Part shown: positions 1 through 35,003 of the stretch, piece by piece
Layout of the letters: each line of letters starts with the position of its first letter
How positions within the stretch are numbered: position 1 is the stretch's first letter
Source of the DNA: a virus
DNA: 35,003 nucleotides
Strand: one strand, 5' to 3'
IMG/VR virus record: IMGVR_UViG_3300012447_000003
Span: 1-35,003 of that record
Notes under the pieces: model-generated
Database searches by the model: none
The model's input: only the letters and a program-made list of their open reading frames with translations
Told to the model about the DNA's origin: nothing
Translations under genes and position numbers: made by a program

Positions 1-284
1 GGGGTGGGCCGTTTGGGCGCATCCCAGATATCTCCACGTCACCCACCGCGCATGCCACCGTCACAGCGAACCGTGAGGCAGAAGACCGGCTCCGCACGTC
101 GATGAAAGCCCGAACATCCACCGTCCACATCACTGCCCCGGTGAACCCGGCGATCGATGTGATGGATACGGCGGTCGTCACCGGCGGCCGGGTGGACATG
201 ACCGGAACCATCACGAAGATTTCTGTCTCCGACCATATGGAGCTGGATGTGTCGATGCCATGGGAGCAGGTGTGGAATGCGTGA
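1..284 (+). CDS. 3' end of the tail protein gene that starts at 34015 (frame 0 at window start; stop TGA 282..284)
   Basis: The frame at 34015 maps to frame 0 after subtracting the 34876-bp unit. ORF 102..284 is its in-window tail. Confidence 0.6.
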   Translation, partial: GGPFGRIPDISTSPTAHATVTANREAEDRLRTSMKARTSTVHITAPVNPAIDVMDTAVVTGGRVDMTGTITKISVSDHMELDVSMPWEQVWNA

Positions 285-6349: not shown

Positions 6350-7690
6350 ATGAGCCGAACCAGAACTTTCCGACGCCGCTCCACCATCGGAGCCATCTGG
6401 AAGCATCGCGAACGATGGGCAGCCAAATACAAACGCAACGGCGTCTGGCACACCCCGGGTCACACCTTCACCACGGCAAAGCTGGCAGACGACTGGCTGT
6501 GTGACGAGCAACGCCTCATTGACCGTGACGAGTGGACACCACCAGCCGATCGCAGACACACCACCCGGATCGACTCGACCACCTTCCGAGACTATGCGTC
6601 GCGCTGGATCGACACTCGCCTCAAGAAAGGCCAGCCGCTCGCAGAGGCGACGAAACACGAATACCGCCGCTACCTCAAAAACTACGTTGGTGACATCGGC
6701 GACGAACCGCTGGCAGGCACCACACGCAACGACTGGCGCGAATGGTACAGCAAGCTGTGCCCAGACAAACCCGTCCAACGAGCACGCGTCTACGCCTTCG
6801 TGTGCTCCGTGCTCACCTCGGCCGTGGATGACGAGCTGATCCCTGCCAGCCCCCTGAAAATCCGGGGCGCCTCCCGGGCGGTCAGCGACAAAACCAACCT
6901 ACGACTCCCCACCGCCGCCGAGATCGACACCATCGCCGACCACATGCCACCCGACACCAAGCTTGCCGTGCTGCTGGCCGCATGGTGTGGTCTGCGCGCC
7001 GGCGAGATCATTGCCCTGCAGCGCCGCGACATTGATCTTGATGCCCCGTCGGTGACCGTGGCCCGGGCCGCCTCCCGCGCCGGGGCACAGTGGATCGTCA
7101 AGGCACCCAAATCCGAGGCAGGACGGCGCATCGTCCCCATGCCCGGTTTCCTCGTCGCCGAGGCTAGGCAGCATCTTGACCGCTGGACTGGTCCACGACG
7201 GGATGACTGGGTCTTCCCTGCCGACGATGGCGGCATGCGCACCCATGCCGGGCTGATCGGCACCCGAGGCGGACGCTACAAGGACGGCCGTCCGAAATAT
7301 CCCACCCGCTACTGCAAGGCCATCGAGGACGCCGGCCTGCCGTGGGTGACGTTCCACATGCTGCGGCACTTCTTCGGCACACAGGTGACATGGCAGGGCG
7401 CAGGACCCAAGGACGCCATGACGTTGATGGGCCAATCGACGATGTCCGCGTGGCAGCGCTACCAGCACACCGACCCCGCAAGGCAGAGGCAGCTGGCCGC
7501 CGCCCTGGACCAGCTGCACACCGGCGACACCACTGCTGCCCCGGAGTTTTCGGGTGACCTGCTGGGGCGTCTCACACCCGGCCAGATCGCCGCCATGATC
7601 GACACCCTCAGCGACGACGAGGCCGCCGAACTTCTGTCCGGCCTGCCACCGGAACGCCTCGCAGACATTTGGCGAGCCAGACGCTCATAA
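6350..7690 (+). CDS. int: Tyrosine recombinase / phage integrase (446 aa)
   Basis: N-terminal arm-binding and SAM-like domains. Catalytic-region motifs ...GLRAGEI..., HMLRHFF and WQRYQH (nucleophile Tyr). Adjacent to attP repeats. Confidence 0.85.
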   Translation: MSRTRTFRRRSTIGAIWKHRERWAAKYKRNGVWHTPGHTFTTAKLADDWLCDEQRLIDRDEWTPPADRRHTTRIDSTTFRDYASRWIDTRLKKGQPLAEATKHEYRRYLKNYVGDIGDEPLAGTTRNDWREWYSKLCPDKPVQRARVYAFVCSVLTSAVDDELIPASPLKIRGASRAVSDKTNLRLPTAAEIDTIADHMPPDTKLAVLLAAWCGLRAGEIIALQRRDIDLDAPSVTVARAASRAGAQWIVKAPKSEAGRRIVPMPGFLVAEARQHLDRWTGPRRDDWVFPADDGGMRTHAGLIGTRGGRYKDGRPKYPTRYCKAIEDAGLPWVTFHMLRHFFGTQVTWQGAGPKDAMTLMGQSTMSAWQRYQHTDPARQRQLAAALDQLHTGDTTAAPEFSGDLLGRLTPGQIAAMIDTLSDDEAAELLSGLPPERLADIWRARRS

Positions 7691-14674: not shown

Positions 14675-14906
14675 CCCCGTGCACCACCCGTCGCACTATG
14701 ACGGGCCACCCTGCCCCCACTGCGGAACCCCAATGGAAACCCGATATGTGGTGGAGAATCTGCCATTCTTCCGAGGCAACGCCATCAAATACCTACTGAG
14801 GGCCGGAAGAAAAGAGGGGGCACCCGAGACACAGGACTTGGAGAAGGCCGACCAATGTGTCCGATTCGAGATCGAACGCATCACCGGAAAGGAGAGCAGG
14901 GCATGA
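14667..14906 (+). CDS. DUF3310-like phage protein (HPSHY ... AIKYLLRAGRK motif), 79 aa
   Basis: The HP.HY and NAIKYL.R motifs are conserved in this phage family. Confidence 0.5.
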   Translation: MNDPVHHPSHYDGPPCPHCGTPMETRYVVENLPFFRGNAIKYLLRAGRKEGAPETQDLEKADQCVRFEIERITGKESRA

Positions 14907-15865
14907 GGATTCGGACGATCAAACCTGAGTTCTGGGGATCCCCGGACGTTGCCCAGCTGGATTTCTTCGAGAGGTTGCTGTTCATCGGTCTCTGGTCGAT
15001 GGCTGACGACGAGGGGAGGCTGCTGGCAGACATGAACTGGATCAGGTCTCAACTCTTCCCCCTGGACGACCATGTCGGGGAGGACTCAGTGAGGACTCAT
15101 GGAGGACTCAGTGAGGACTCAGTGAGCCTTCATGGAGGCCTCATTCACCTCTCAAACATGGGTCTCATCACCCTGTATCAGGTCGACAACGGGCGCACCT
15201 ACTGTCAGGTCACGAATTTCACCACTCATCAGCGAATAAACCGACCTACTGAATCAAAGATTCCGCCTCTGACTAGGGGAAACATTCTGACTCATGGAGG
15301 CCTCACTGAGGACTCACTGAGGACTCATGGAGGACTCACTGAGGACTCATCACAGGAACAGGGAACAGGGAACAGGGAACAGGGAACAGGGAAGGTAATT
15401 GCTCAAACCGACGCTGACGCGACGGTGTTGAGCGACACACCCCCAACCGGCAACCAGCTGGAAGTGAGGGGCGGCGGAACGCCGACCCGTGGCAGCCGCC
15501 AGTACACTGACGAGTTCGAGAAGTTCTGGAAGACCTACCCGCGCAAGGTGGGCAAGGCCGAGGCAGCCAAGGCATTCACCAAGCTGATCAAGGGCGGCCA
15601 GGTGGACGCCAACCAGCTGACCGCTGCAGCCCAAGCCCACGCCCAGGCATGGCAGCAGTCCGGGACCAGCCAGGAATTCATCCCCCACGCATCCACCTGG
15701 CTGAACAAGGGCCGCTGGTCCGACGAGCCGGAGGTGCTGAACCGAACCGGCGATGGAAGACCCACCGCAGGGCTCAGCGACGACCAGTGGAAGCAGGCCT
15801 GGGAGCGGGCCCAGATCCTCGACGCCGACGATGACACCCAGCCGCCCAGCCCCGGATGGCCCTGA
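14903..15865 (+). CDS. Replication initiator / replisome-organiser-like protein (DnaD-like C-terminal motif FEKFWKTYPRKVGKAEAAKAF) that carries iteron repeats inside its coding sequence
   Basis: ATGA overlap start at 14903 (ORF-track start 14855). Tandem 11-bp DNA repeats encode the EDSVRTHGGL peptide repeats. The F..FW..YP.K.GK motif is typical of DnaD-like / phage replication proteins. Confidence 0.6.
   Translation: MRIRTIKPEFWGSPDVAQLDFFERLLFIGLWSMADDEGRLLADMNWIRSQLFPLDDHVGEDSVRTHGGLSEDSVSLHGGLIHLSNMGLITLYQVDNGRTYCQVTNFTTHQRINRPTESKIPPLTRGNILTHGGLTEDSLRTHGGLTEDSSQEQGTGNREQGTGKVIAQTDADATVLSDTPPTGNQLEVRGGGTPTRGSRQYTDEFEKFWKTYPRKVGKAEAAKAFTKLIKGGQVDANQLTAAAQAHAQAWQQSGTSQEFIPHASTWLNKGRWSDEPEVLNRTGDGRPTAGLSDDQWKQAWERAQILDADDDTQPPSPGWP
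15080..15145. repeat. Iteron cluster 1: six tandem 11-bp units (gaggactcagt, gaggactcatg, gaggactcagt, gaggactcagt, gagccttcatg, gaggcctcatt)
   Basis: Direct reading shows 11-bp (one helical turn) periodicity. Confidence 0.85.
15286..15351. repeat. Iteron cluster 2: ~5.5 tandem 11-bp units (gaggcctcact, gaggactcact, gaggactcatg, gaggactcact, gaggactcatc) of the GAGGACTCAnn consensus
   Basis: Direct reading. The core CTCA(C/G)TGAG is a near-palindrome. Confidence 0.85.
15354..15395. repeat. Six tandem 7-bp units (aggaaca, gggaaca x4, gggaagg) immediately 3' of iteron cluster 2
   Basis: Direct reading. A-rich purine tract next to the iterons, so probably part of the origin. Confidence 0.8.
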
Positions 15866-15978: not shown

Positions 15979-16242
15979 ATGTCACACACCTGCCACACCT
16001 GCGGACGCACCGACGGAAACCGCACCCAGCACTGCGTCGCCTGCCACCAAAGCTTCAACAGCACCACAGCCGGAGACATGCACCGCGTAGGCGACCACGG
16101 AACACGACAAGGCCCCAACCGCCGCCGCTGCCTCACCCCCGACGAAATGCGCCACAAGGGCATGACCCAGAACCCCCAAGGCGTCTGGATGGCAGCAAGA
16201 AAACTCAACCAGCAGGAAATCACCCGAAAGAGCCAGTCATGA
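15979..16242 (+). CDS. Zinc-ribbon-like hypothetical protein (CHTCG...HCVACH), 87 aa
   Basis: ATG 15979. First gene inside the C-rich skew block. Confidence 0.45.
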   Translation: MSHTCHTCGRTDGNRTQHCVACHQSFNSTTAGDMHRVGDHGTRQGPNRRRCLTPDEMRHKGMTQNPQGVWMAARKLNQQEITRKSQS

Positions 16243-16613
16243 ACCGCAAGGAAACCATCGCCCTCTGCCGATACCTCCAAGCCCTCTGCCCCAACCAGAA
16301 ACTCGACAAACACACCCCCGACGCCTGGGCAGACATCCTCGCCAACATCGACTACCTCGACGCCAAACTCGCCATCCGAAACATCACCCACCAAAACGAC
16401 AAATACGCCCTCAACATCGACGTGCGCATGATCTACAACGAAGCCAAAACCATCCGACAAAACCGCCGCAACAAAGCCGACCCCACCCCAACAGAAAACA
16501 ACCGGCCACCAACAAACCCAGCCGCCTACTGCGAATGGATGCGCAACCAAAACCACCAACAAGCCCAACTCGAAAAACAACAATGGGCCAACAACCACAC
16601 CATCAAATACTAA
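16239..16613 (+). CDS. Hypothetical protein (124 aa)
   Basis: ATGA overlap. Hydrophobic core residues interspersed with charged ones. Confidence 0.5.
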   Translation: MNRKETIALCRYLQALCPNQKLDKHTPDAWADILANIDYLDAKLAIRNITHQNDKYALNIDVRMIYNEAKTIRQNRRNKADPTPTENNRPPTNPAAYCEWMRNQNHQQAQLEKQQWANNHTIKY

Positions 16614-16644
16614 AAACCACCACACCCAAACCAGAAAAACAACC

Positions 16645-16845
16645 ATGAACACCAACCAAGCCGACGCCTACCGCGCCTGGATGGCCGCCGACCGCGTCAT
16701 CAACGGGACCGCCAGCCTCAACGACCTGCCAACCCAGCCACCACCCATCGCCCCGCCCCGCCACACCGACGCCAACACCATCCACGAAACCCGACGCAAG
16801 GCACAGACCAGAAACCAGCCCCACACGCGCTACGTTCGCCCCTAA
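16645..16845 (+). CDS. Possible small protein (66 aa)
   Basis: ORF only. Stop codons are scarce on this strand in this region, so the ORF is weak evidence. Confidence 0.3.
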   Translation: MNTNQADAYRAWMAADRVINGTASLNDLPTQPPPIAPPRHTDANTIHETRRKAQTRNQPHTRYVRP

Positions 16846-16856
16846 CGCACCAACAG

Positions 16857-17456
16857 GTGGCCCAGCGTCCAAATTGCACCCCCACCACCCGCAAGACCCT
16901 CAGAAAGGCGCACAGCACAAAAATGACGAAGCAAACCCACAAACGGCAAACCCCACAAGTCATCGCCAACCGACAACGCCAAGACAAAGCACTCGAACTC
17001 CGCAAAGCCGGAGCCACCTACAACCAAATCGCCACCCAACTCGGCTACTCCAGCCCATCCACCGCCCACAGAGCCGTCACCACAGCCCTCAACAGACTCT
17101 GCACCGACAACGCCGAACAACTCCTCAAACTCGAACTCACACGACTCGACCAAGCCACCCTCTGGGCAGCACAACGAGCCAAAGCAGGAGAACCAGCAGC
17201 CATCAACACCCTCGTACGAATCTCAGAACGCCGCGCCAAACTCCTCGGACTCGACAACAACGAAAAACGACTAGCCGACGCCGCAGAACAACAAGCAACC
17301 ATCGACAAACAACAAGCAAACCTCGTCATCAAACTCATAAAATCCGTCACCACAGCACTCGGATGCACCGAAGAACAACAAAACAAACTCCCAGAAATAC
17401 TCCACCAACAAATGATCGAACTCGGCCTCATCAACAACACGAAAGAAACCCGATGA
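16857..17456 (+). CDS. HTH-domain protein with coiled-coil C-terminus (199 aa from GTG 16857, or 177 aa from ATG 16923); possible terminase small subunit or regulator
   Basis: Segment ALELRKAGATYNQIATQLGYSSPSTAHRAVTTALNRL is a sigma-70 region-4-like HTH. Overlapping frame-2 ORF 16874..17452 is low-complexity and rejected. Confidence 0.5.
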   Translation: MAQRPNCTPTTRKTLRKAHSTKMTKQTHKRQTPQVIANRQRQDKALELRKAGATYNQIATQLGYSSPSTAHRAVTTALNRLCTDNAEQLLKLELTRLDQATLWAAQRAKAGEPAAINTLVRISERRAKLLGLDNNEKRLADAAEQQATIDKQQANLVIKLIKSVTTALGCTEEQQNKLPEILHQQMIELGLINNTKETR

Positions 17457-18136
17457 ACACCAGCGGCTACTGCAAAACACCCGGATGCCACACCAAAAAC
17501 CACTGGACAGAATGCACCCAACCACAATGCCCAGGCTGCATCCCAGCCCGCGCCACACACGGAAACCTGTGCAACCACCACTACAACCTCCTCACCACAC
17601 TCCTCTCCCACAACGCCCACAGCATCGAAGAAACCTACGAATGGCTCCTCCACAACCTCGGACAACACCTCCACACCACCAACACCAACCCACCCATCAC
17701 AGGAACCCGCACACCACAAACGCCACTCAACCTCACCGCCCACGACCTCGCTGACACCATCACCACCACCATCGCCGCCTGGGCAAACCTCCTCCACCAA
17801 CACCTCCACACCAACCACCCAACCCACAACATCTACGAAAACCTCGCCACACTCACCCGCCACATCGACACCATCACCACACTCGACTGGTGTCCCGACA
17901 TGCTCGACGAACTCCACCACCTCAACAACCAAGCCCTCACCGCCTTCCCCATCGACGACCACCCACGCCACTGTGACGGAATCCCATGCAGAACCTGCAA
18001 CCTCCCAGACCTATGGATCGACCCAGGAGACGAAAACGTCACCTGCCACACCTGCACCGCCACCTACACACCCAGCCAATACCGAGGCTGGATCAAATCC
18101 CTCTGGAACACCTGGAACCAGGACAACAAGCAATGA
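17453..18136 (+). CDS. Cys/His-rich hypothetical protein (228 aa); only the part of ORF 16874..18136 downstream of ATG 17453
   Basis: ATGA overlap with the preceding gene. CKTPGCH...CTQPQCPGC and CDGIPCRTC...CHTCTATY clusters suggest zinc binding. Confidence 0.5.
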   Translation: MNTSGYCKTPGCHTKNHWTECTQPQCPGCIPARATHGNLCNHHYNLLTTLLSHNAHSIEETYEWLLHNLGQHLHTTNTNPPITGTRTPQTPLNLTAHDLADTITTTIAAWANLLHQHLHTNHPTHNIYENLATLTRHIDTITTLDWCPDMLDELHHLNNQALTAFPIDDHPRHCDGIPCRTCNLPDLWIDPGDENVTCHTCTATYTPSQYRGWIKSLWNTWNQDNKQ

Positions 18137-18417
18137 ACCCAACCACACAACAAGCAGCCACCATGCTCGGACGAACCCCCCAAGCAATCAGACACTGGCA
18201 CACACGAGGACTCATCAACCCCACCAACCCAGGACACAAACCACTCCGCTGGAACTGGCCCACCCTGCTGGCCGCCGACGCCGAAACACGCCGAACCACA
18301 CCAACACCAGCACTTCTGTACAAAGCCGAAAAAGATCTGGCACAATGGCAGCAGGGACGAGTGCACCCACAAGCCACACCGAAACGCCCCACCCACCAAC
18401 CCACACACACAAGGTGA
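18133..18417 (+). CDS. HTH_17 (excisionase/MerR-like) DNA-binding protein (94 aa); possible small terminase-associated or regulatory protein
   Basis: ATGA overlap. Segment AATMLGRTPQAIRHWHTRGLI is HTH-like. Confidence 0.5.
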   Translation: MNPTTQQAATMLGRTPQAIRHWHTRGLINPTNPGHKPLRWNWPTLLAADAETRRTTPTPALLYKAEKDLAQWQQGRVHPQATPKRPTHQPTHTR

Positions 18418-18420
18418 GCC

Positions 18421-19635
18421 ATGCCCACACACAACCTCGACACCCACACGCTCACCATCAACGAACTCCACCCCTACTACCGCAACCCCAGAAAAGGCGA
18501 CACCAAAGCCATAGCAAGAAGCCTCGACACCAACGGCCAATACCGGCCCATCGTCGTCAACACCGGACGCCAAACAGGACGCCCACTCGAAATCCTCGCC
18601 GGCAACCACACATGGAAAGCAGCGAAAACCCTCGGCTGGGACACCATCCAGGCAGTCACCATCGACGTTGACAACCTACAAGCCGCACGCATCATCGCAG
18701 CAGACAACCGCACCGCAGACCTCGGCGACTACGACAACACCATCCTCGCCAACCTCCTCGAAGACATAGGCGACCTCGACGGAACCGGCTACACAGACAT
18801 CGACCTCGACAACCTCCTCGGCAACACCGCCCAAGACACCACAAACACCGACGACACCACACCCCCACAAACACCCATAAGCCGCACCGGAGATGTCTGG
18901 CACCTCGGAGGGAGCACGCTAGTAGTCGGCGACGGAACAAACAACGATGCCCTCAACGAAGCACTACACGGACACACAGCAGACCTGTACGTCACCGACC
19001 CCCCATACAACGTCGCCTACCAAGGGAAAACACAACAGCGCCTCACAATCCAAAACGACCACGTCGAGGACACAGCATTCATAGAGTTCCTCACATCACT
19101 GTTCACCGCAGCGTTCAACCACACAGGAAACGGATGCGGCGCATACGTGTTCCACGCAACCTCCACACAAACCCAGTTCCTGGAGGCCTTCAAAAAAGCA
19201 GGATTCGACTACAAGCAAACACTGATCTGGGTGAAGAACACGCTCGTCCTCGGACGGCAGGACTACCAGTGGATGCACGAACCCATCATCTACGGCTGGA
19301 AACCCAAAGGCCCCCACCACTGGTACGGAGGACGCAACAAAACAACCGTGCTGGAGTGCGACAAACCGCCAGCCAACCGCGACCACCCCACCATGAAACC
19401 CATCAACCTCATAGGCGAACTGATCCACAACTCCAGCAAGCCAGGAGACATCATCCTCGACACCTGCGCCGGCTCCGGAACCACACTCCTGGCAGCACAC
19501 CAAATCGACAGAACAGCCGCCGTCATCGAAATAGACCCACGATACGCAGACGTCATCTGCAAACGCTTCCAAACAATGACCGGTGAACTGCCACAACGAG
19601 ACGGGGAAGAGATAAACTTCATCGACAACGAATAA
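18421..19635 (+). CDS. ParB-like nuclease N-domain fused to N6-adenine/N4-cytosine DNA methyltransferase (404 aa)
   Basis: ParB/Srx motif ILAGNHTWKAAKTLGW. Methylase motif IV DPPYN and motif I CAGSGTT. This fusion is common upstream of phage terminases. Confidence 0.8.
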   Translation: MPTHNLDTHTLTINELHPYYRNPRKGDTKAIARSLDTNGQYRPIVVNTGRQTGRPLEILAGNHTWKAAKTLGWDTIQAVTIDVDNLQAARIIAADNRTADLGDYDNTILANLLEDIGDLDGTGYTDIDLDNLLGNTAQDTTNTDDTTPPQTPISRTGDVWHLGGSTLVVGDGTNNDALNEALHGHTADLYVTDPPYNVAYQGKTQQRLTIQNDHVEDTAFIEFLTSLFTAAFNHTGNGCGAYVFHATSTQTQFLEAFKKAGFDYKQTLIWVKNTLVLGRQDYQWMHEPIIYGWKPKGPHHWYGGRNKTTVLECDKPPANRDHPTMKPINLIGELIHNSSKPGDIILDTCAGSGTTLLAAHQIDRTAAVIEIDPRYADVICKRFQTMTGELPQRDGEEINFIDNE

Positions 19636-19654
19636 GCAAGGAGGCCCCCACACA

Positions 19655-21076
19655 ATGGCCTCCAACCTTTTCCAAACGATCGACTCAATGTTCTGCCGTG
19701 CCAGCCACCCACAATGGAACACCCCAGGCGACATGGCCCAACACCTCGACCCCGCCACCGTCCAAACCCCAGCACTACGCCTCATCGACACCGAGCTCAC
19801 CCAACTCGCCGACAACCCCGACGGCCGCCTCATCATCTCCATGCCCCCACAGGAAGGAAAATCGGAACGCGCCTCCCGCCGCTTCCCCCTGTGGTGCCTC
19901 ACCCACAACCCAGACACCCGCATCGCCATCGCCTCCTACGCTCTCTCAGTAGCCAGACGGTGGGGTCGCATCATCCGCGACGACATCGCCTCCCACCCCA
20001 GCCTCGGGCTCACCGTCCGCCCCGACCTGTCAGCCCAGCACGAGTGGCAGCTCGCCGGACATGACGGTGGCGTCTACGCCACCGGCGTAGGCGGCAGCCT
20101 CACTGGACGCGCCGTCGACCTGCTCATCATCGACGACCCCATCAAAGACCGCGAACAAGCAGACTCCACCATCTACCGCAACCGCGTCTGGGACTGGTGG
20201 ACCGACGTCGCATCCACCCGCCTCGCCCCCGGCGCACCAGTCATCCTGATCCTCACCCGCTGGCACCAAGACGACCTGGCAGGACGCCTCCTCAACGCCC
20301 CCGACGGCAACCGGTGGAAGCTCCTCAACATCCCCGCCCAAGCCGAAACCAGCAACGACCCACTAGGGCGCAAACCCGGCCAGTGGCTCCAATCCTCCCG
20401 CCGCCGAACCCCACAGCAGTGGGAAGCCATCAAACAACAAGCAGGCTCCCGCACATTCGCATCCCTCTACCAAGGACACCCCTCACCGCCCGGCGGAACC
20501 ATCTTCAACCGTGACCACTGGATCATCGACCCACACCCCGCCTGGCAGGCAGACAACAACCAGCAGCACTGGGTCGCCTCCGGGCAGGTGTTCACCTCAT
20601 GGGACCTCACCTTCAAAAGCGGCGAACACACAGACTGGGTCGTCGGACAGGTCTGGCAGCACGACGGCACAACCCTGCGCCTCCTCGACCAGGCACGAGG
20701 ACGCTGGTCCTTCACCGAAACCTGCCAACACATGCAGCAACTCGCGGCACGATGGCCACAAGCCACCGCCCACCTCGTCGAGGACAAAGCCAACGGCCCA
20801 GCCGTCATCGACGCCCTCCACTCCACCATCACAGGACTCGTCCCCGTCCAGCCACAAGGCGGAAAAGAATCCCGCGCCAACGTCGTCCAACCCCTCGTCG
20901 AGGCCGGAAACATCCACCTGCCCGGCTACGAACCCTGGTGCGGAGACCTCATCGAGGAACTCGCCGCCTTCCCCAACGCCACCCACGACGACCAGGTAGA
21001 CGCCCTCACCCAGGCACTCACGTGGGCCGTCGTCACACGCCGCAGAAAAGGCAACACATTCACACCCCTCGGATAG
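19655..21076 (+). CDS. Terminase large subunit (473 aa)
   Basis: Strong RBS aaggagg. Walker-like and Terminase_6 motifs (ISMPPQEGKSE; LLIIDDP; ILTRWHQDD). Nuclease domain at the C-terminus. Confidence 0.85.
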   Translation: MASNLFQTIDSMFCRASHPQWNTPGDMAQHLDPATVQTPALRLIDTELTQLADNPDGRLIISMPPQEGKSERASRRFPLWCLTHNPDTRIAIASYALSVARRWGRIIRDDIASHPSLGLTVRPDLSAQHEWQLAGHDGGVYATGVGGSLTGRAVDLLIIDDPIKDREQADSTIYRNRVWDWWTDVASTRLAPGAPVILILTRWHQDDLAGRLLNAPDGNRWKLLNIPAQAETSNDPLGRKPGQWLQSSRRRTPQQWEAIKQQAGSRTFASLYQGHPSPPGGTIFNRDHWIIDPHPAWQADNNQQHWVASGQVFTSWDLTFKSGEHTDWVVGQVWQHDGTTLRLLDQARGRWSFTETCQHMQQLAARWPQATAHLVEDKANGPAVIDALHSTITGLVPVQPQGGKESRANVVQPLVEAGNIHLPGYEPWCGDLIEELAAFPNATHDDQVDALTQALTWAVVTRRRKGNTFTPLG

Positions 21077-21087
21077 GAGTTCGGCCC

Positions 21088-22431
21088 ATGAGTATCCTCA
21101 CAGACGCCATCACACAATGGGCCACCCGACAAAACACCTACCGGCTCCTCCACGACTACTATCGCGGCAACCACCAGCTACGCTTCGCATCCCGCGACTA
21201 TCTGACGAAACAAACCCAGAAACTGTTGACCGACACGGTCATGTCGCTGCGAGAAAACCTGTGCCCCGCCGCCGTCACCGCATTCACCGACGGCATCGCC
21301 ATCCAGCAATGGACCACCACCGATGATGGCCTCGACAACGACGGGGCCGCGAAACTCCACGGACTGTCCCGGCTAGAAGGCTTCATCGACCGGGCAGGAT
21401 TCATCTACGGTGACGCCTACGCGATCGTCTGGCCCGGCCGAGACGGCACCCCCTCCCCCGTATTTTGCGACCCCACCACCATGGCCGCACAACCCGACCC
21501 AGACGACCCCTCCCAGCTGGCATGGGCCGCCCGCATCTGGACCGACGACGGGTACGGCCGGGTCAACCTGTACCTGCCAGACCGTTTGGAGCGTTGGATC
21601 ACCAAGCATCAAATCGGCGGCGACATGCCCACCACAGACGACGCATGGACCGGCTGCACCGATGATGACGGAGACACCATCACCCACCCATTCGGTGTCG
21701 TCCCCGTCTGCTGGTGGAAACGCGACCCAGACGACCACATGTCCCACGGCCACTCCATCCTCACCGACGTCATCCCCCTCCAAGACGCCCTCAACAAAAC
21801 GTTGGCCGACCTCATCATCACCACCGAAACCTACGCCCGCCCCTTCTACGCCCTGCTCAACCACGACGTGGAAACAACGGTGCACAACCCGTACGCCCCC
21901 ACCCCAACCAGGCCCAGTCAGGGAATCAACTTCGACAAACAGCAAATCTGGGCAACCAACGGCCCCGGCCCGCTGCTGCGTTTCGACCCTCCCGACCTCA
22001 CCCCACTGCTGAAAGTCCAAGACGCGTTCGCCGCGAAAATCGCCCGCGTCGTCGGCATCCCCTACCACTATCTCTCCCAAACCTCCGGCGATGTGCCCTC
22101 CGGTGAAGCCCTCCGCATCCTCTCCACCAGACGCACCGCCACCATCCGGGCATGGCAGCGAGACGCCGAACCCGTCTGGAACGGCCTCCTCCAACTGCTG
22201 GGAGTCGACCCCGGAATCCAATGGGCCGAACCCATGCCACTCGACCCCCTCGAACAACTACAGGTCGCCCAAGCCAAACAACAGTTGGGCTACGCCCTCG
22301 TCGACATTGTTCACAGCCTGGACGAACCCGACCCGGAAGGTGTCGTACAGAGAGCCACCGACCAACAAGCCCAATCCGCGGCGGCCGCCGGACGCGCCCT
22401 CATGAACGGCACCCTCAACTATGACCGCTAA
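21088..22431 (+). CDS. Portal protein (SPP1 gp6-like), 447 aa
   Basis: RBS aggag. Size and position after terminase. N-terminal YYRGNHQL. The ORF-track start 20599 overlaps terL and is rejected. Confidence 0.8.
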   Translation: MSILTDAITQWATRQNTYRLLHDYYRGNHQLRFASRDYLTKQTQKLLTDTVMSLRENLCPAAVTAFTDGIAIQQWTTTDDGLDNDGAAKLHGLSRLEGFIDRAGFIYGDAYAIVWPGRDGTPSPVFCDPTTMAAQPDPDDPSQLAWAARIWTDDGYGRVNLYLPDRLERWITKHQIGGDMPTTDDAWTGCTDDDGDTITHPFGVVPVCWWKRDPDDHMSHGHSILTDVIPLQDALNKTLADLIITTETYARPFYALLNHDVETTVHNPYAPTPTRPSQGINFDKQQIWATNGPGPLLRFDPPDLTPLLKVQDAFAAKIARVVGIPYHYLSQTSGDVPSGEALRILSTRRTATIRAWQRDAEPVWNGLLQLLGVDPGIQWAEPMPLDPLEQLQVAQAKQQLGYALVDIVHSLDEPDPEGVVQRATDQQAQSAAAAGRALMNGTLNYDR

Positions 22432-23503
22432 CCAGCGCACCCTCACCGAGCTGCTACGTCAGCGCCATGTGATCGACCGTATCCAAGACGATCAGACACG
22501 GATGCTCGCCCAACACTGGGCCTCCACCTGGGACGCTATTGAATCCGAACTGCGCACCACCACACTCGCCCTCGCACAACTCGACGACGACTCCAAAGCT
22601 TCGGCTGCAATCCGCAACGTCAAAGCCAGAGACGCCCTTGCTATCGCCTCCGACGGCCTCACCGACTGCCTCGCCACCTCCAACCTGAACGCCGCCGATG
22701 TGGCACGCCGTCTCATCGCCCAAGCCACCTCCGACCAAGACGCGCTCATAGCCACCCAGCTACCGGCCGGGCACACCATCAACCTCGCCTCGGTGGACGC
22801 CCGACAAATCGATGCGATCATGCGGCGCACCCTCGACCAGATCACCGTGCGCCACTGGCACCTCAACCAGGCAGCCACCGCATCCATGAAACGAAACCTG
22901 GCTGTCGGTGTCACGCTGGGACGCAACCCGAAACAGGTGGCCGAGCACATGGTCAACATGGTTCAAGGCGACTTCGAGGGAGGCCTGGCCCGCGCCCTCG
23001 TCATCGCACGAACCGAACAACTCGACGCCTACAGGGCCGCCGCGCAAGCCCACCACAACACCAACCGTGGCGTGCTCCAAGGATGGCAATGGTACGCCGA
23101 GCTAGACCATCGCACGTGTGCCTCCTGCATCTCCCACCATGGCGAACTCCATCCCCTCGACGACCCCGGCCCCCTCGACCACCACCAAGGCCGATGCTCC
23201 CGCCTCCCCGTCACCAAAACATGGAGCCAACTCGGGTTTGACGACATCGACGAACCCCCCACAGCACTGGACGAGGACGCCGGATACCAATGGTTCCAAA
23301 ACCAGCCGGAAACCATGCAGAAAAACATTCTCGGCCCCAAAAGATACGACGCCTGGACCGGCGGAAGATACCCTGTAGACGACTGGACCATTCGCAAACA
23401 CCACTGGTCACGCGACGAAAACGGGAATCTGGTGCAGGACTGGCGAGACTCCTACCATGTGGGCCCCATCAAAACCCCATCAACCCTCGACATGAAAGGT
23501 TAA
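22421..23503 (+). CDS. MuF-like minor head / capsid morphogenesis protein (360 aa)
   Basis: Phage_Mu_F-like core (ARTEQ..AYRAA; WQW.AELDHRTCASCISHHG). Follows the portal. Confidence 0.75.
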   Translation: MTANQRTLTELLRQRHVIDRIQDDQTRMLAQHWASTWDAIESELRTTTLALAQLDDDSKASAAIRNVKARDALAIASDGLTDCLATSNLNAADVARRLIAQATSDQDALIATQLPAGHTINLASVDARQIDAIMRRTLDQITVRHWHLNQAATASMKRNLAVGVTLGRNPKQVAEHMVNMVQGDFEGGLARALVIARTEQLDAYRAAAQAHHNTNRGVLQGWQWYAELDHRTCASCISHHGELHPLDDPGPLDHHQGRCSRLPVTKTWSQLGFDDIDEPPTALDEDAGYQWFQNQPETMQKNILGPKRYDAWTGGRYPVDDWTIRKHHWSRDENGNLVQDWRDSYHVGPIKTPSTLDMKG

Positions 23504-23509
23504 TCCGAG

Positions 23510-24079
23510 ATGGACGACACCACCACAGAAACCGACGAAACAAATACCACCAATGATGCTAAACTGGGTGGCGACAACGGCACCACTGACACCAGCAGCG
23601 AGACGCCAACAAGTGACAGTGAAGGACGCGGATCCAAAAACGCGGTCCTAGCCGACCTCGCCCGGGAACGCGACAAGCGCCACCAGCTCGAAAAGCAATT
23701 CGCCGAATTCCGCGACGGACTCGGCAAAGCCCTGGGTTTGACCCCAGACGAGCAGCCCACCCCAGAACAACTCACCAGACAGTTGGCAGAGTCGCAGGCG
23801 GCTACCCGTGCAGCACAAACACAGCTGGCAGTCCTGCAGAATCTGCCAGACGGTGTGGACCGGGAAGCCCTGCTCGACTCCACCGCCTTCCACAAGGTGA
23901 TCTCCGACGCGACGCCGGACACGATCGCCGACACCATCACCACGTTCGTTGAGCAGCACCCCCGCTTCAAGACGAAGCCCGCCGGGATGCGCGACCTCAA
24001 CACCCCCACCACCACATCTGACCCTGTCGACCCGATCGCCGCGGCCCTCACAGCTGCCGTCGGGCAACGACACCGATAA
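23510..24079 (+). CDS. Scaffolding protein (189 aa, acidic, helical)
   Basis: Position between MuF and major capsid. Low-complexity acidic N-terminus and a region predicted coiled-coil from composition. Confidence 0.6.
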   Translation: MDDTTTETDETNTTNDAKLGGDNGTTDTSSETPTSDSEGRGSKNAVLADLARERDKRHQLEKQFAEFRDGLGKALGLTPDEQPTPEQLTRQLAESQAATRAAQTQLAVLQNLPDGVDREALLDSTAFHKVISDATPDTIADTITTFVEQHPRFKTKPAGMRDLNTPTTTSDPVDPIAAALTAAVGQRHR

Positions 24080-26799: not shown

Positions 26800-27309
26800 A
26801 TGCCTGTTTCCGTGTACAACCCTGAGGGCATCGAAACGATCGAGAATTCCAAGCTGATGCTGGTCCCCTCGATCAAGAAACTGGATGCCGCAACCGTCAC
26901 CGAGCTGAAGGCTGGCACCGAAATCACCTGTGCCCTGCGCTCGTTCGAGTCGTCCTCGGATGCCTCCGAGTCGGAGGACAAGCGTATTTGCCGCCGTGAC
27001 GCCGGTAAGCGACCCGGCCCTGTCACCTATGGCCTGTCTGACACTGACATCATCATCGACGACCCGCAGAAGGACGACGAGGTGATCGCCGGCCTGGAGC
27101 CGGGTGTTCACACGATTATCGTCGAGTTCCCGAATGTGAAGCCCGGATCGGAAATCACCGCCGGACAGAAGTATTACGCCTGGAAGTCGACGGTGAAGAC
27201 GAAGACGCCGGGCAAGCTGTCCACCGATGACGGTGAAATGTTCACGATGAATGTGGGCTGGTCTGTGACCGGCCGCACCCTGAACGGCAAGGTCACCGGG
27301 GCAGCCTGA
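26800..27309 (+). CDS. Major tail protein (170 aa)
   Basis: Position upstream of the G/T chaperones and TMP. Followed by hairpin 27317..27364 (15-bp stem with 14 matches). Confidence 0.65.
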   Translation: MPVSVYNPEGIETIENSKLMLVPSIKKLDAATVTELKAGTEITCALRSFESSSDASESEDKRICRRDAGKRPGPVTYGLSDTDIIIDDPQKDDEVIAGLEPGVHTIIVEFPNVKPGSEITAGQKYYAWKSTVKTKTPGKLSTDDGEMFTMNVGWSVTGRTLNGKVTGAA

Positions 27310-27415
27310 CAAGTCTGGTGGCCTTCCAAACATTTTTCTGTGGGGTGCCGTTTGGGAGGCCACCACCCCTCAACCCCTTGGCACCCCCAAACTCTGCTGT
27401 AGGAGACACCCCAAC

Positions 27416-27964
27416 ATGACTGGCACCCCAACCGACATGCGCACCCTGATGCAGGACTATGTGTCCGGCCTCAACCGTCCCACGAAACATGTGGACATTT
27501 GCCTCGACCCGAAAGCCGCCCAGGCGTGGAAACAGGCCGACGAAGAGCTGACAGCCGCCCAGGCGGAAGCCGACGACACCGACAATGGGTCTGGAGGCAC
27601 CATCGGGCAGGCGGCAGCGGTGAAGAAACGCCTCAACGCCGCCGTGAAGAGCGAGAAGACGGCCCGGGACAGGCTGGCTAATGCCACGATCCGGCTGGTG
27701 TTCACCGGGCTGACCACCACCGCATGGAACGATCTCGTCGACGAGCTGCGCCGCATCGACGACGAGGAGCAGCGGGCCACCATCGAACAAGTCAGGCTGC
27801 CCCGAGCATGCCTCACCAAAGCCACCACCATCGACGGGGCGGACGCCGGAATCGGAGGAGACGACCTGAACCGTCTGCTGGACAATCTTCCCCCAGCTGA
27901 CGTGTCACGATGCTGGGCCGCCTCGATCGAGGCATGCACGGAAACAATCGACCTCCCTTTCTGA
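27416..27964 (+). CDS. Tail assembly chaperone G (182 aa) with -1 slippery heptamer CCCTTTC (27955..27961) at its 3' end
   Basis: Position immediately before TMP. The X XXY YYZ heptamer ends 1 nt before the stop codon. Confidence 0.65.
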   Translation: MTGTPTDMRTLMQDYVSGLNRPTKHVDICLDPKAAQAWKQADEELTAAQAEADDTDNGSGGTIGQAAAVKKRLNAAVKSEKTARDRLANATIRLVFTGLTTTAWNDLVDELRRIDDEEQRATIEQVRLPRACLTKATTIDGADAGIGGDDLNRLLDNLPPADVSRCWAASIEACTETIDLPF

Positions 27965-28348
27965 AAAGGGCCGTCACCGATCCGCAGATTCGCCGCGACA
28001 TCGACCACGCCAAGGAATGGGCGATAGCACCAACCGTCTACTGGGGGGCGTGACACCGGACCCCGGTGGACACCGGAGGATCGGGCTGTCCTCGACGCCC
28101 TCGACGATTACGAGGCCACCCTGTGCCCCGGATGCGGCCAGCCCATGTCCAGCCATGACGGAAAAACAGCAGCCGACTACACGGCGGCCGCCATCACCTG
28201 CCCATCGCTGCAGGCGCTGGACCGGGATCAGGTGGCCCAGGCACGACGCGACGGCCACACAGACCAGAAACCCGACCCAGAGAGAGCCCGCCGCTGGATC
28301 CACGGCGACCGGAAACACATCACCGAATGGGCAAAACAATTCCAGTGA
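27955..28348 (+). CDS. Tail assembly chaperone T extension. It would be reached by a -1 shift at 27955..27961 into frame 1, but that frame stops at 28051. The long frame-2 ORF to 28348 (CPGC zinc-ribbon-like motif) is reached only if one G of the G6 run 28043..28048 is skipped.
   Basis: Frame-by-frame translation. The frame-1 bridge LKRAVTDPQIRRDIDHAKEWAIAPTVYWG reads like protein. Frame 2 from 28028 encodes ...PRWTPEDRAVLDALDDYEATLCPGCGQPM... ending 25 nt before the TMP start. Confidence 0.4.
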
Positions 28349-28372
28349 AACACCACACATGAAGGAGACGCT

Positions 28373-31300
28373 GTGGCTGACAAAACCGTGACAGTGAAGC
28401 TGAACGCCGACACGCACGGCTTCACCGCCGCCATGGCCCGTGCAGCCACCGCCTCCAAACAGCTCGGAAGCCAAGTCAAGGCCCACGGAGCAGACTTCGA
28501 CCGGATGGCATCCGCATCCACCAAAGCCGGTTTGGCCGTCACAGCAGGGGTCGGTGGGGCCGTCAAGGCCGCCGTCGACTGGGAATCCGCCTGGACAGGT
28601 GTGCAAAAGACCGTCGACGCCACCCCGGCACAGTATGCACGGCTGGAAGGGCAGCTGCGCTCCCTCACCAGCGTGCTGCCAGTGTCGCATCAGGAGATCG
28701 CCGGTGTCGCCGAGGCAGCCGGCCAGCTGGGCGTGAAACAGCAAGACGTCGCAAAGTTCACCTCGACGATGGTCAAACTGGGCACCGCAACCAACATGAC
28801 ATCGGAGGAGGCTGCCACCAGCCTGCGCCAGTTCATGAACGTCATGGGCACCGCCCCCAAGGATGTGGACCGGCTCGCCGCCACCGTCGTCGACCTGGGC
28901 AACAACTCTGCCACCACCGAACGTGACATCGTCGAGATGGGTCAGCGGCTCTCCGGCACCGGAAAGCAGATGCGCATGTCCGAACCGCAGGTGATGGCGT
29001 TCGGAGCCGCCATGGCGTCGGTCGGCATCAACGCCGAGGCGGGCGGCACCGCCATGTCCCGCAACTGGATCAAAATCGACAAGGCCGTCCGCTCCGGCGG
29101 GCAAAGCCTGCAAACCATGGCGCAAGTGTCCGGCATGTCGGCAGCCCAATTCAAAAAAGCATGGCAGACCGACGCCGCCGGGGCAACAAACGCCCTGATC
29201 GAAGGTTTGGGGCGCGCCTCCAAATCCGGGCAGGACGTGTCGAAACTCCTCGACCAGATGGGCATCAAAGGCCAATACCAAACCGATGCGATGAAACGTC
29301 TGGCCGGCGCATCGGCCGGGGCCGGAAACGCCCAAGACCAGCTGGCAGACTCCCTGAAAATCGCGGGGCAAGGCTGGTCACAGAACACGGCGTTGGAAGA
29401 GGAGTTCGGCCGCCGCCAGCAGACCACTGCCTCACAGATGCAGCTGGCCATGAACCGCATCAAGGATGCCGCCATCAACGTGGGTCAGGCTGCCCTCCCA
29501 GTGTTGGGCAGGGCGGCGCAACAGGTGTCCCGGTACGCCGACCGGTTCGCCAAACTGTCTCCTCACACGCAGGAGATGATTTTGAAGATTGGTGCGCTCG
29601 GCGGCGTGTCGCTGATCGCAGCCGGCCAGATCGGCAAGGTGGCCCGCGCCTTCAAGGATGTCGGTTTGGCTGTGCAGGCGGTGCGCGGCATCGCCGGTGT
29701 CGCCGGGGCGTTCGCCGGTATCGGCGGTTCGGCGGGCAAAGCGGCAGGCGGGGCATCGGCGGCCGGAAAAGCCATGTCGAGGCTGGGCGGATCCACCGCA
29801 GGGCTGGGCGGCAAACTTTTTGGTGTTGCTGCCGGGCTGGGTGCTGTGGCAGTGGCATGGGCACATCAGCATGACGCCGATTGGGCGGCCAACATTGACA
29901 GGCAGCTGGGCTCCACCACCGACTGGGCGGAGCAGGCGAAACTCGGCATTGTCGACCTTGACGACAAGCTGAAGCAGGTCAACGATGGCGGTTTCGGCCC
30001 GCTGCGTGAAAACCTGACCGGCCTCGGTGATGCCATGAACCGTGCCTCCGGCGCGAACCGGGGATTTTGGCAGCGGCAATCGGATCATTTGGCGCATTTC
30101 GTGGGTGCCAACGCCGATTTGACGGAGCAGTCTAAGGCGCAGCTGGCGAAATATGATGCGGCGATCTCCCAGTTCGCCTCGTCGCATGCTTGGAATGATC
30201 TGCAACGCAACTGGACACAGATCGCCGACATGGCCAAGCACAACGGCATATCGGATGACCGGTTGATGTCGCTGTTCCCGAAGGTGCAGGCCGGGCTGGC
30301 AGACACGGCGAAACAGCTGGGTGTTACTGGCCTGTCAGCCCGGGAATACGCCGGCTGGCTGCGTGGAGAAATCCCGTCGTCGGTGAACCGGGCTGCTGTG
30401 GCAAACGAGAAACTCGCTAAATCGTTGGGGATCGTCCCCGACAAGAAACGCGTCCAGGTTGAGACCGTCATCAAGGGCGGCAAGAAGGGTGAAGTTGAGG
30501 CCCTCAATAGGGAGATTCTGAAGCTCCCCAAGGACAAGCAGACCAAGGTGCTGGCAACAGCTAAAACCAAGGGTTTCAAAGAGGCCATGGCGCAAGCCAA
30601 GGACTTGGAGAAGCAGGCCAAAGGTTTGCAGGAGACCACCCGGCACGGTGTGAAGCTGGAAGCCAAGGGCGGTATCACATCGGCGCAGGTGCACGCCATG
30701 CGTCAACAGCTGGAGGGGCTGTCGAAGGCGGCCGCCAAGGAGGTGGCGCTCAAGTTCAACACCGGCGACCTCGACGGCGCGAGGCGGAAGCTTCAGGAGT
30801 TTCAGAACACCGTGCGCACCACCGCCACGAAGGCTGGTGTGAAGCTGGAGATTAGGGGTGCCACCACCGGGGATCTGGAGCATTTGCGCGCCGAGATGGA
30901 CAAGCTGCCCAAGGAAAAGCAGGTCCAGATCGCCACAACGGCGAAAACCGACGGTTTCGACAAGGCCATGGGGCAAGCGACCCAGTTCCAGCAGCAGATC
31001 GCCGGAATCACCAGGTCCACCAGAGATGGTGTGACGGTGAAGATCAAGGGTGTCACCGACGCCACCCAGATCACCGCACTGAAAACCGACATGGAGCGGC
31101 TGACCACTCAGGATCAGAAGAAGGTTTCCCTGATCGCCGAGACGCGGGGGCTGGAGCCGGCCCGGCAGGCGATCGACGACATCCGACGCTCGTACGGCCG
31201 CATCTCGGATTCCGCCCCCATCAACATGAAAGCCACGGTGCAGGGCGGTGCGGAGAAGCAGCTGACGGTTTTGGATCAGCATGCCACCGACTTGGATGGC

Positions 31301-34015: not shown

Positions 34016-35003
34016 TGGGCTGGCCGGTCGATGACACATGGCAAGCGATCGCCGCATCACCTCACGGAATCACATGGCTTGTCACGGCCACCCGGGGTGC
34101 TCAAACACTGTCGGCAAACATGGAAGTAGCCGACGCCACCTGGACGGCCACATGGGACGGGGGCCAGGTCACATCGGAATGGAAGGGCAGCATCTGTGAC
34201 CCGCTGATGGACCTGTTCACCCAAGACCCGCTGTGTGCGTTGGCTCCGTGGGGGCAGCAGCTGCATGTCAGGGCTGCGATGGAGGCCGGCCGCACGTGGC
34301 ATGCTGCATGCCCCATCGGCGTGTTCCGCATCGAGGAAACCTCGGTTTCGGATGGCGGTGTGTGGATCCTTCAGGGCACCTCTGGATGGCGTCAGCCGGG
34401 TTTCACTGACCGGTTTGCCCCGTCTGGGCAGCAGCTGGACACGACTGGCCGCGACATGCTGCAGCAGCTGGCCGACGAGAAATGGGTGACCGGGAAACAC
34501 CCCCGAAACGTGGATGTGCGCCAGGCCATGGAGCACATTGTGGATGGTACTGGTATCCGGCTGGGTGTCTGGGCCGATAGCACCCGGATTCCTGCCGACA
34601 TGGATTGGGGCAAGGATCGTCTCGAGGCAGCCCTCACGGTGGCGAAAGCCGCCGGGAAAACGTTGTGGTGCGACCGGGTAGGAGCGTTGCAGCTGGTCGA
34701 CGACAAAACTGGGCGTGGACGGTGGGAATTTTCCCCTTCCGACGATGTTGGGGTGTCGTGGCTGCCATCTGCCACCCGCGATGGTGTCGCGAATGCCGCC
34801 GCAGTCCAGGCGGAGACGAATGGTTCCCGAACCGAGATTTGGGGTGCAGCCTACGACGTGTCATCCCCGCTGGCATGGGGTGGGCCGTTTGGGCGCATCC
34901 CAGATATCTCCACGTCACCCACCGCGCATGCCACCGTCACAGCGAACCGTGAGGCAGAAGACCGGCTCCGCACGTCGATGAAAGCCCGAACATCCACCGT
35001 CCA
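34015..35003 (+). CDS. Minor tail protein (Tal-like, tail tip), 5' part; the ORF continues across the circular junction to stop at window position 284, ~382 aa in total
   Basis: ATG at 34015 overlaps the TGA of the upstream gene (TGATG). The open frame runs to the window end with no stop and the same frame is open at 1..284. Its position after TMP and Dit fits a tail-tip protein. Confidence 0.6.
   Translation, partial: MGWPVDDTWQAIAASPHGITWLVTATRGAQTLSANMEVADATWTATWDGGQVTSEWKGSICDPLMDLFTQDPLCALAPWGQQLHVRAAMEAGRTWHAACPIGVFRIEETSVSDGGVWILQGTSGWRQPGFTDRFAPSGQQLDTTGRDMLQQLADEKWVTGKHPRNVDVRQAMEHIVDGTGIRLGVWADSTRIPADMDWGKDRLEAALTVAKAAGKTLWCDRVGALQLVDDKTGRGRWEFSPSDDVGVSWLPSATRDGVANAAAVQAETNGSRTEIWGAAYDVSSPLAWGGPFGRIPDISTSPTAHATVTANREAEDRLRTSMKARTSTV
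34877..35003. repeat. 127-bp exact duplicate of window bases 1..127 (circular closure or terminal redundancy)
   Basis: Base-by-base comparison: ggggtgggccgtttgggcgcatcccagatatc...catccaccgtcca is identical at both ends. Confidence 0.95.

Follow-up and report, generated by a model that had tools for sequence, protein, structure and literature searches.

An apparent double frameshift in a phage tail chaperone locus is probably a recent one-nucleotide insertion in a single clone

Introduction

How is the second half of a tail assembly chaperone read when the frame that should encode it appears to be broken twice? This question is raised by a locus of an uncultured phage represented by IMG/VR record IMGVR_UViG_3300012447_000003, of which positions 1 to 35,003 were analyzed (this whole stretch of 35,003 nt is referred to here as the window). 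An earlier note on this DNA proposed that the extension of a G/T-type chaperone requires a -1 slip at CCCTTTC followed by a +1 correction in a run of six G residues (G6), and offered three readings of the second step: a homopolymer error of sequencing or assembly, a second programmed +1 event, or a decaying T domain.

Lambda gpG and gpGT, the subject of work by Xu, Hendrix and Duda in 2004, are reportedly tail assembly chaperones whose -1 programmed translational frameshift is conserved. The frameshift work of these authors serves as the "Xu et al." test set in PMC10885494, and the slippery consensus given there allows any base at X, A or U at Y, and A, U or C at Z. The CCCUUUC of the window phage fits this consensus.

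Results and Discussion

Anatomy of the G/GT locus

The locus is of the well-known G/GT chaperone kind. This identity follows from the order of the tail tube, G, T and tape measure genes and from homology of T to annotated chaperones, and agrees with the G/T assignment of the earlier note; the pair lies between tail tube and tape measure genes, with PF25595 and PF10145 matches, respectively (Table 1). The tail tube gene encodes 169 aa in the gene calls of every related contig. As in lambda, the major tail gene and the tape measure gene are separated by two ORFs, and the second of these, which has no start of its own, lies in the -1 frame and overlaps the end of G, where an in-phase X_XXY_YYZ heptamer occurs. 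In contrast to lambda, the window heptamer C_CCU_UUC directly precedes the 0-frame stop and T of this clone is interrupted by a one-nucleotide insertion; no sequence similarity of the window phage to lambda G or T was detected.

Table 1. Coordinates of the features of the window discussed in the text.
Feature	Position	Strand	Evidence or remark
Tyrosine integrase gene	6350..7690	+	Pfam PF00589, E=9.5e-14; phrog_1 integrase, E=5e-53
Major tail (tail tube) protein gene	26800..27309	+	Directly upstream of G; Pfam PF25595 Phage_TTP_16, E=9.5e-25
Gene G, putative tail assembly chaperone, 182 aa	27416..27964	+	ORF; AGGAG Shine-Dalgarno sequence upstream
Slippery heptamer C_CCT_TTC, predicted -1 slip site	27955..27961	+	In phase; 0-frame stop TGA adjoins
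First part of T extension (LKRAV...VYWGA), -1 frame, 30 codons after slip	27961..28053	+	Premature TGA 28051..28053
G6 run with the extra G that breaks the T frame	28043..28048	+	Sole gap in coding part of 16-sequence alignment
Orphaned T remainder (RDTGPRWTPEDR...LCPGCGQP...QFQ + stop), frame of G	28049..28348	+	Lacks a start codon upstream of 28145
Tape measure protein gene, 1573 aa	28373..33094	+	Pfam PF10145 PhageMin_Tail, E=1e-21; GTG start; AAGGAG Shine-Dalgarno sequence

The 3' end of gene G reads GAC CTC CCT TTC TGA, which puts C_CCT_TTC in the correct X_XXY_YYZ phase and confirms the slippery heptamer that had been placed at the end of G. The frame of G and the -1 frame are jointly open only in 27901..27961, and CCCTTTC is the sole in-phase XXXYYYZ heptamer in this 61-nt overlap, where about 0.06 would be expected, as well as the sole copy of CCCTTTC in the 35-kb window. 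Eleven relatives (approximately 77–98% nucleotide identity) and a Cutibacterium avidum prophage have the heptamer unchanged, although the bases just downstream vary. Judged from these sequence data, its presence at the end of G is beyond chance, and we infer that -1 frameshifting takes place here. Folding of the sequence that follows the slip site revealed no conserved stimulatory structure (consensus fold of -8.4 kcal/mol with one covarying pair; z = -0.8 for the window fold), and a literature search returned nothing on CCCTTTC with tail chaperones. CCCTTT and a downstream AAAGGG (27955..27970) pair perfectly as an inverted repeat of 6 bp around a loop of 4 nt; this repeat is lost in most relatives and is therefore probably due to chance.

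The exact G protein is present on 16 contigs. It has no significant Pfam match, its sole PHROG match is a family of unknown function (phrog_19248, E=3.5e-6), and no homologous named chaperone family was detected for it with Pfam, PHROG or BLASTP against the G part of Brevibacterium phage LuckyBarnes. Its position and the frameshift architecture suggest that G is a tail assembly chaperone, and a chaperone function is predicted for G and GT alike.

For the T part, the two pieces found in the window were joined after deletion of one G and used as a query. By tblastn this sequence matches the annotated tail assembly chaperone of LuckyBarnes (gp21/gp22; 42% identity over 72 aa, E=3e-8) and tail assembly chaperones of about 130 Microbacterium phages; it also matches phrog_4537, a tail assembly chaperone family (E=8e-7). 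The matching LuckyBarnes stretch is part of a joined GT CDS (gp21), and for both LuckyBarnes and Caudovirus D_HF5_3 the alignment passes the position of the G run without a change of frame. The motif W-T-x-x-D-R...Y-E-A-x-L-C-x-G-C-G-Q-P-M-S is shared with the LuckyBarnes and Microbacterium chaperones. In contrast, the G parts of the window phage and LuckyBarnes are unrelated (BLASTP E=0.5), and the GT of LuckyBarnes is intact. The two T domains also differ in their cysteines: the LuckyBarnes homolog has two CxxC pairs (CRGC...CIGC), whereas the T domain of the window family (28121..28210) has CPGC and a single later Cys (ITCPS), which looks like the partial loss of a zinc-ribbon-like site in the Cutibacterium phage family.

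The interrupted T extension

In the window, the -1 frame translates to PFLKRAVTDPQIRRDIDHAKEWAIAPTVYWGA and is closed after 32 codons by the TGA directly following GGGGGG, in agreement with the segment of about 30 aa described previously. The remaining T sequence lies in another frame, that of G, which carries stops at 27962 (TGA) and 28025 (TAG); beyond these it has no stop from 28028 up to the TGA at 28346..28348 (106 codons), encoding ...RDTGPRWTPEDRAVLDALDDYEATLCPGCGQP...QFQ. The claims that a T-like remainder with a CPGC motif runs in the frame of G to 28348, and that two stops in this frame block simple readthrough, were thus both borne out, the former also by the homology of T to annotated chaperones. 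The distance from the T-frame stop to the tape measure GTG at 28373 is 24 nt and not 25 nt as had been given.

Other routes to the T remainder were considered and ruled out. Readthrough of the G stop would meet the second in-frame stop at 28025. Independent initiation is precluded by the lack of any ATG, GTG or TTG in the frame of the remnant in 28028..28144 and of a Shine-Dalgarno sequence there, and stop-start coupling at GTGA (28050..28053) by the GTG being in the third frame.

A predicted 11-bp, G/C-rich hairpin, GUCUACUGGGG...CCCCGGUGGAC (28036..28071), has the G run in its 5' arm and might favor replication slippage there. This hairpin is not conserved, its 3' arm being changed from CCCC to ACAC in the relatives with about 80% identity.

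Relatives read T in one uninterrupted frame

IMG/VR yielded 11 related contigs with G proteins 70–98% identical to that of the window, and exact-protein look-ups added more, resulting in a comparison set of 23 distinct, non-identical relatives with about 77–99.9% nucleotide identity to the window. All 23 have one G fewer at the run (GGGGG, GGGGA or GGGGC) and an uninterrupted -1 frame. The extension could be read out fully in 16 of them and spans 130 codons, beginning at CCCTTTC and ending with a stop immediately upstream of the tape measure gene, compared with 32 in the window. In the 16-sequence alignment the extra G of the window is the only gap in the coding stretch, which supports the earlier proposal that the lesion consists of one additional G. 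Third codon positions of the -1 frame account for most of the variation on either side of the G run: 18 of 27 variable sites upstream of it and 46 of 78 downstream. Together with the single -1 frame in all relatives, this argues that the phage family uses one -1 shift only. The view that the extension requires a -1 slip followed by a +1 correction as a designed feature is not upheld.

One of the relatives is a prophage in the complete C. avidum chromosome AP024308.1 (L045, 1731997..1738308), in which the -1 frame is intact. C. avidum and C. granulosum prophages share with the window the gene order, the G terminus ...CTCCCTTTCTGA and a 130-aa T extension; unlike the window, they have GGGGC or GGGGG at the run and an intact frame. 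Close cultured relatives were not found: megablast of 27400..28400 against the phage collection gave no match, and the nearest capsids are those of Arthrobacter phage ArV2 (57%) and Rothia phage Spartoi (51%). A search of genome contigs with G returned no relative, and a search with the T alignment returned only a distant Serinicoccus locus. In one relative that is 91% identical to the window (L039 763..3168; ENA ERZ28587599 scaffold_224), the large terminase is 801 aa long as opposed to 473 aa and has a LAGLIDADG_3 match, which suggests an intein or homing-endonuclease insertion.

A model for the locus and the window clone

The explanation that we favor, with good confidence, is that an uncultured temperate siphovirus of Cutibacterium has an ordinary G/GT locus with a -1 frameshift, and that a very recent one-nucleotide insertion truncates GT in one clone. 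Most ribosomes translating G would stop at the TGA at 27962, while a minority would slip -1 on C_CCT_TTC, with the Pro and Phe tRNAs re-pairing with CCC and UUU. In the relatives, slipped ribosomes would read one -1 frame for 128 further codons to give a GT fusion of about 310 aa, with the WTPEDR...LCPGCGQP domain in its T part. In analogy to lambda gpG/gpGT, the tape measure protein may be coated by G and GT, which may also recruit the tail tube protein.

In the window clone, insertion of one G, most likely through a slipped-strand replication error, would have converted GGGGG to G6, so that the -1 frame would end at 28051..28053 and yield a truncated product of 212 aa, with the remaining 99 T codons stranded in another frame without a start codon. 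Such a clone could survive in lysogenic form or as a replicating genome that can be induced, and it could easily revert to G5 or gain weak rescue by incidental slippage on the G run. It is probably defective or severely impaired in tail assembly and, at best, weakly rescued in this way. That the clone stays infectious, either because slippage of the ribosome or RNA polymerase on G6 supplies enough GT or because the truncated 212-aa GT suffices, appears rather improbable.

Could a second shift operate on the G run?

A functional two-step recoding in the clone, in which a +1 or -2 slip on the G run or stuttering of RNA polymerase keeps the phage viable, would be incidental and not evolved. The local sequence would allow it. 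A Gly tRNA on GGG at 28045..28047 can re-pair at +1 (GGG 28046..28048) or at -2 (GGG 28043..28045), the pairing on GGG_GGG being perfect after either shift, and the frames needed for a second shift are jointly open only in 28028..28050, which contains the G run and therefore makes it the sole plausible correction point. According to Xu, Hendrix and Duda, lambda is said to need far less GT than G, which would ease the demand on such a mechanism, and the G6 clone is present in several samples as complete, high-coverage circular contigs, as if it were replicating.

Features of a programmed site are missing at this point. When GGG occupies the P site, the codon in the A site is GCG; this codon is common (22 per 1000 codons in the window genome), and the ribosome would meet no hungry codon. 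If the A site holds the stop, GCG occupies the P site and is unable to re-pair at +1; for a pause with the Gly tRNA in the P site, the -1-frame stop would have to lie one codon closer. No slow A-site codon is thus found beside a re-pairable P-site codon, and folding identified no significantly stable or conserved structure at the G run. The site is not conserved either, G6 being absent from all 23 distinct relatives. The yield of GT would be the product of two inefficient events, and circular high-coverage DNA could also be derived from an induced tail-defective prophage. On balance, two-step recoding in the clone is considered unlikely.

The +1 frameshift site of prfB consists of CUU_UGA with an upstream AGGGGG. 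The window resembles it in having a G-rich, Shine-Dalgarno-like run near a stop and in that a +1 shift would restore the frame. Unlike in prfB, the slippery P-site codon does not adjoin the stop, and the G run lies at a different distance from the stop; moreover, the site is conserved in no relative.

Is the extra G genuine?

A further explanation is that G6 is an artefact of sequencing or assembly, that is, a homopolymer miscall in the consensus, and that the true genome has G5 and an intact GT gene with a single -1 shift. The difference is indeed a single base within a homopolymer, and the run lies in the stem of the G/C-rich hairpin described above. Moreover, one contig (L023) has no mismatch to the window over 1846 nt except for G5 at the run. 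Every contig with G6 is 100% identical to the window, over up to 20 kb, and comparison with homologous phages, as the earlier note had advised, located G6 in these window-identical contigs only and in none of the distinct relatives.

Within this clone, G6 is reproducible. It occurs in about ten assemblies, all seen as consensus sequences, from at least four metagenomes and with differing k-mer sizes: in Logan contigs of two separate SRA runs (SRR1647619 and SRR1647271), in JGI metagenomes 3300012218, 3300013419, 3300012540 and 3300012289, and in ENA assemblies ERZ27289904, ERZ27290240, ERZ27290085 and ERZ1032611, the last of these at a coverage of 142. The ENA assemblies fall into two series, with SPAdes-style or k141-style contig names. 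Several of the G6 accessions may be re-assemblies of the same few runs, and all may stem from one study or person; a literature search on the sample accessions found nothing. The recurrence of G6 across about ten assemblies with different k-mers makes a one-off assembly error unlikely, and the first of the three readings in the earlier note loses much of its appeal.

The assemblies are also consistent in other respects. Positions 1..127 of the window are identical to 34877..35003, from which it follows that the window is a circular assembly (k=127) of a 34,876-bp genome, and same-clone assemblies of 35,003 nt (k=127) and 34,931 nt (k=55) both fit a circle of this size. In 24.4..31.3 kb, of which approximately 6.5 kb was compared with relatives, all other indels are intergenic or preserve the frame, the neighboring genes are full-length, and no other frame-breaking homopolymer indel is present. 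On short-read platforms, a 6-base run is seldom miscalled in most of the reads. The exact G5 ORF was found only under other sample accessions, which is weak evidence on whether G5 and G6 coexist, as the accessions of the archives cannot be mapped onto each other.

Given that shared runs or a single person may stand behind the accessions and that the view is one of consensus sequences, a small probability of an artefact remains, and we judge this explanation to be somewhat less probable still than two-step recoding. Most likely, G6 is a genuine and very recent insertion in one clone, and we infer that it would be seen in the reads as well. Of the three readings offered previously, decay of the T domain comes closest, although the decay amounts to one very recent mutation, the G5 contig being identical over 1.8 kb but for the G.

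An evolved, programmed second (+1) frameshift, with -1 and then +1 as a regulatory device, is consistent with the local geometry only (a G run directly before the -1-frame stop and an intact T domain downstream) and is rejected as extremely improbable: G6 is found in one clone with zero divergence, one base away from its nearest G5 contig over 1.8 kb, all diverged relatives including the isolate genome read T in a single frame, and the G run lacks the usual features of programmed +1 sites.

In two samples, assembly of the clone breaks near ~3100, 4100 and 6150, in the lysin/holin region and upstream of the integrase; these breaks possibly reflect co-occurring strain variants or an attachment site.

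Lifestyle and host

In addition to the integrase, the window encodes a repressor-like HTH protein, an antirepressor and WhiB. The protein cluster of the T ORF includes NCBI hypothetical proteins of C. avidum and C. granulosum (P0011-P0016), and the relatives sit in contigs of 0.2 to 2.8 Mb. The integrase, repressor and antirepressor, together with Cutibacterium cluster members in large contigs, identify a temperate Cutibacterium phage family. Since the phage is temperate, a tail-defective copy could persist in a lysogen, and after induction it could still replicate and package DNA. Induction of such a lysogen would explain the complete, high-coverage circular contigs.

The G6 genome itself has been recovered as complete, circular-assembling contigs of approximately 35 kb (one at 142x) or as short fragments, and never within a host contig. 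For a dead prophage, such an absence from host contigs is a little surprising; it agrees with active replication of the element and is compatible with residual function, for which some room is left.

Implications for annotation

In AP024308.1 the T ORF is represented by a 103-aa hypothetical protein at NCBI, and a joined GT is absent from the listed called genes despite the intact CCCTTTC and 130-aa extension. The C_CCT_TTC site and the 130-aa T extension can be annotated across the prophages of C. avidum and C. granulosum, in which the T ORF is now hypothetical. The apparent double frameshift of the window, a lesion of one clone, should not enter annotations as a recoding signal. It nevertheless offers a natural test case, in which an essential-looking tail chaperone gene carries a reproducible frameshift mutation in a phage whose genome is still complete, circular and at high coverage. 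The clone could serve to study the amount of GT that a siphovirus requires, or the leakiness of a G6 run.

Other features of the genome

Strand composition is strongly skewed in 16000..24000 of the window, where the coding strand is A/C-rich and G/T-poor; at 16–18 kb the GC skew reaches -0.45 and the AT skew +0.58. This zone covers a likely small terminase gene, a 227-aa gene, a ParB-methylase gene and the terminase gene. Upstream of it, a 336-aa ORF (14855..15865) with no Pfam match contains tandem peptide repeats of THGGL(S/T)EDS(V/L). Repeated V-x-T-S-A-P-x-A-like motifs are also present in the C-terminal third of the tape measure protein.
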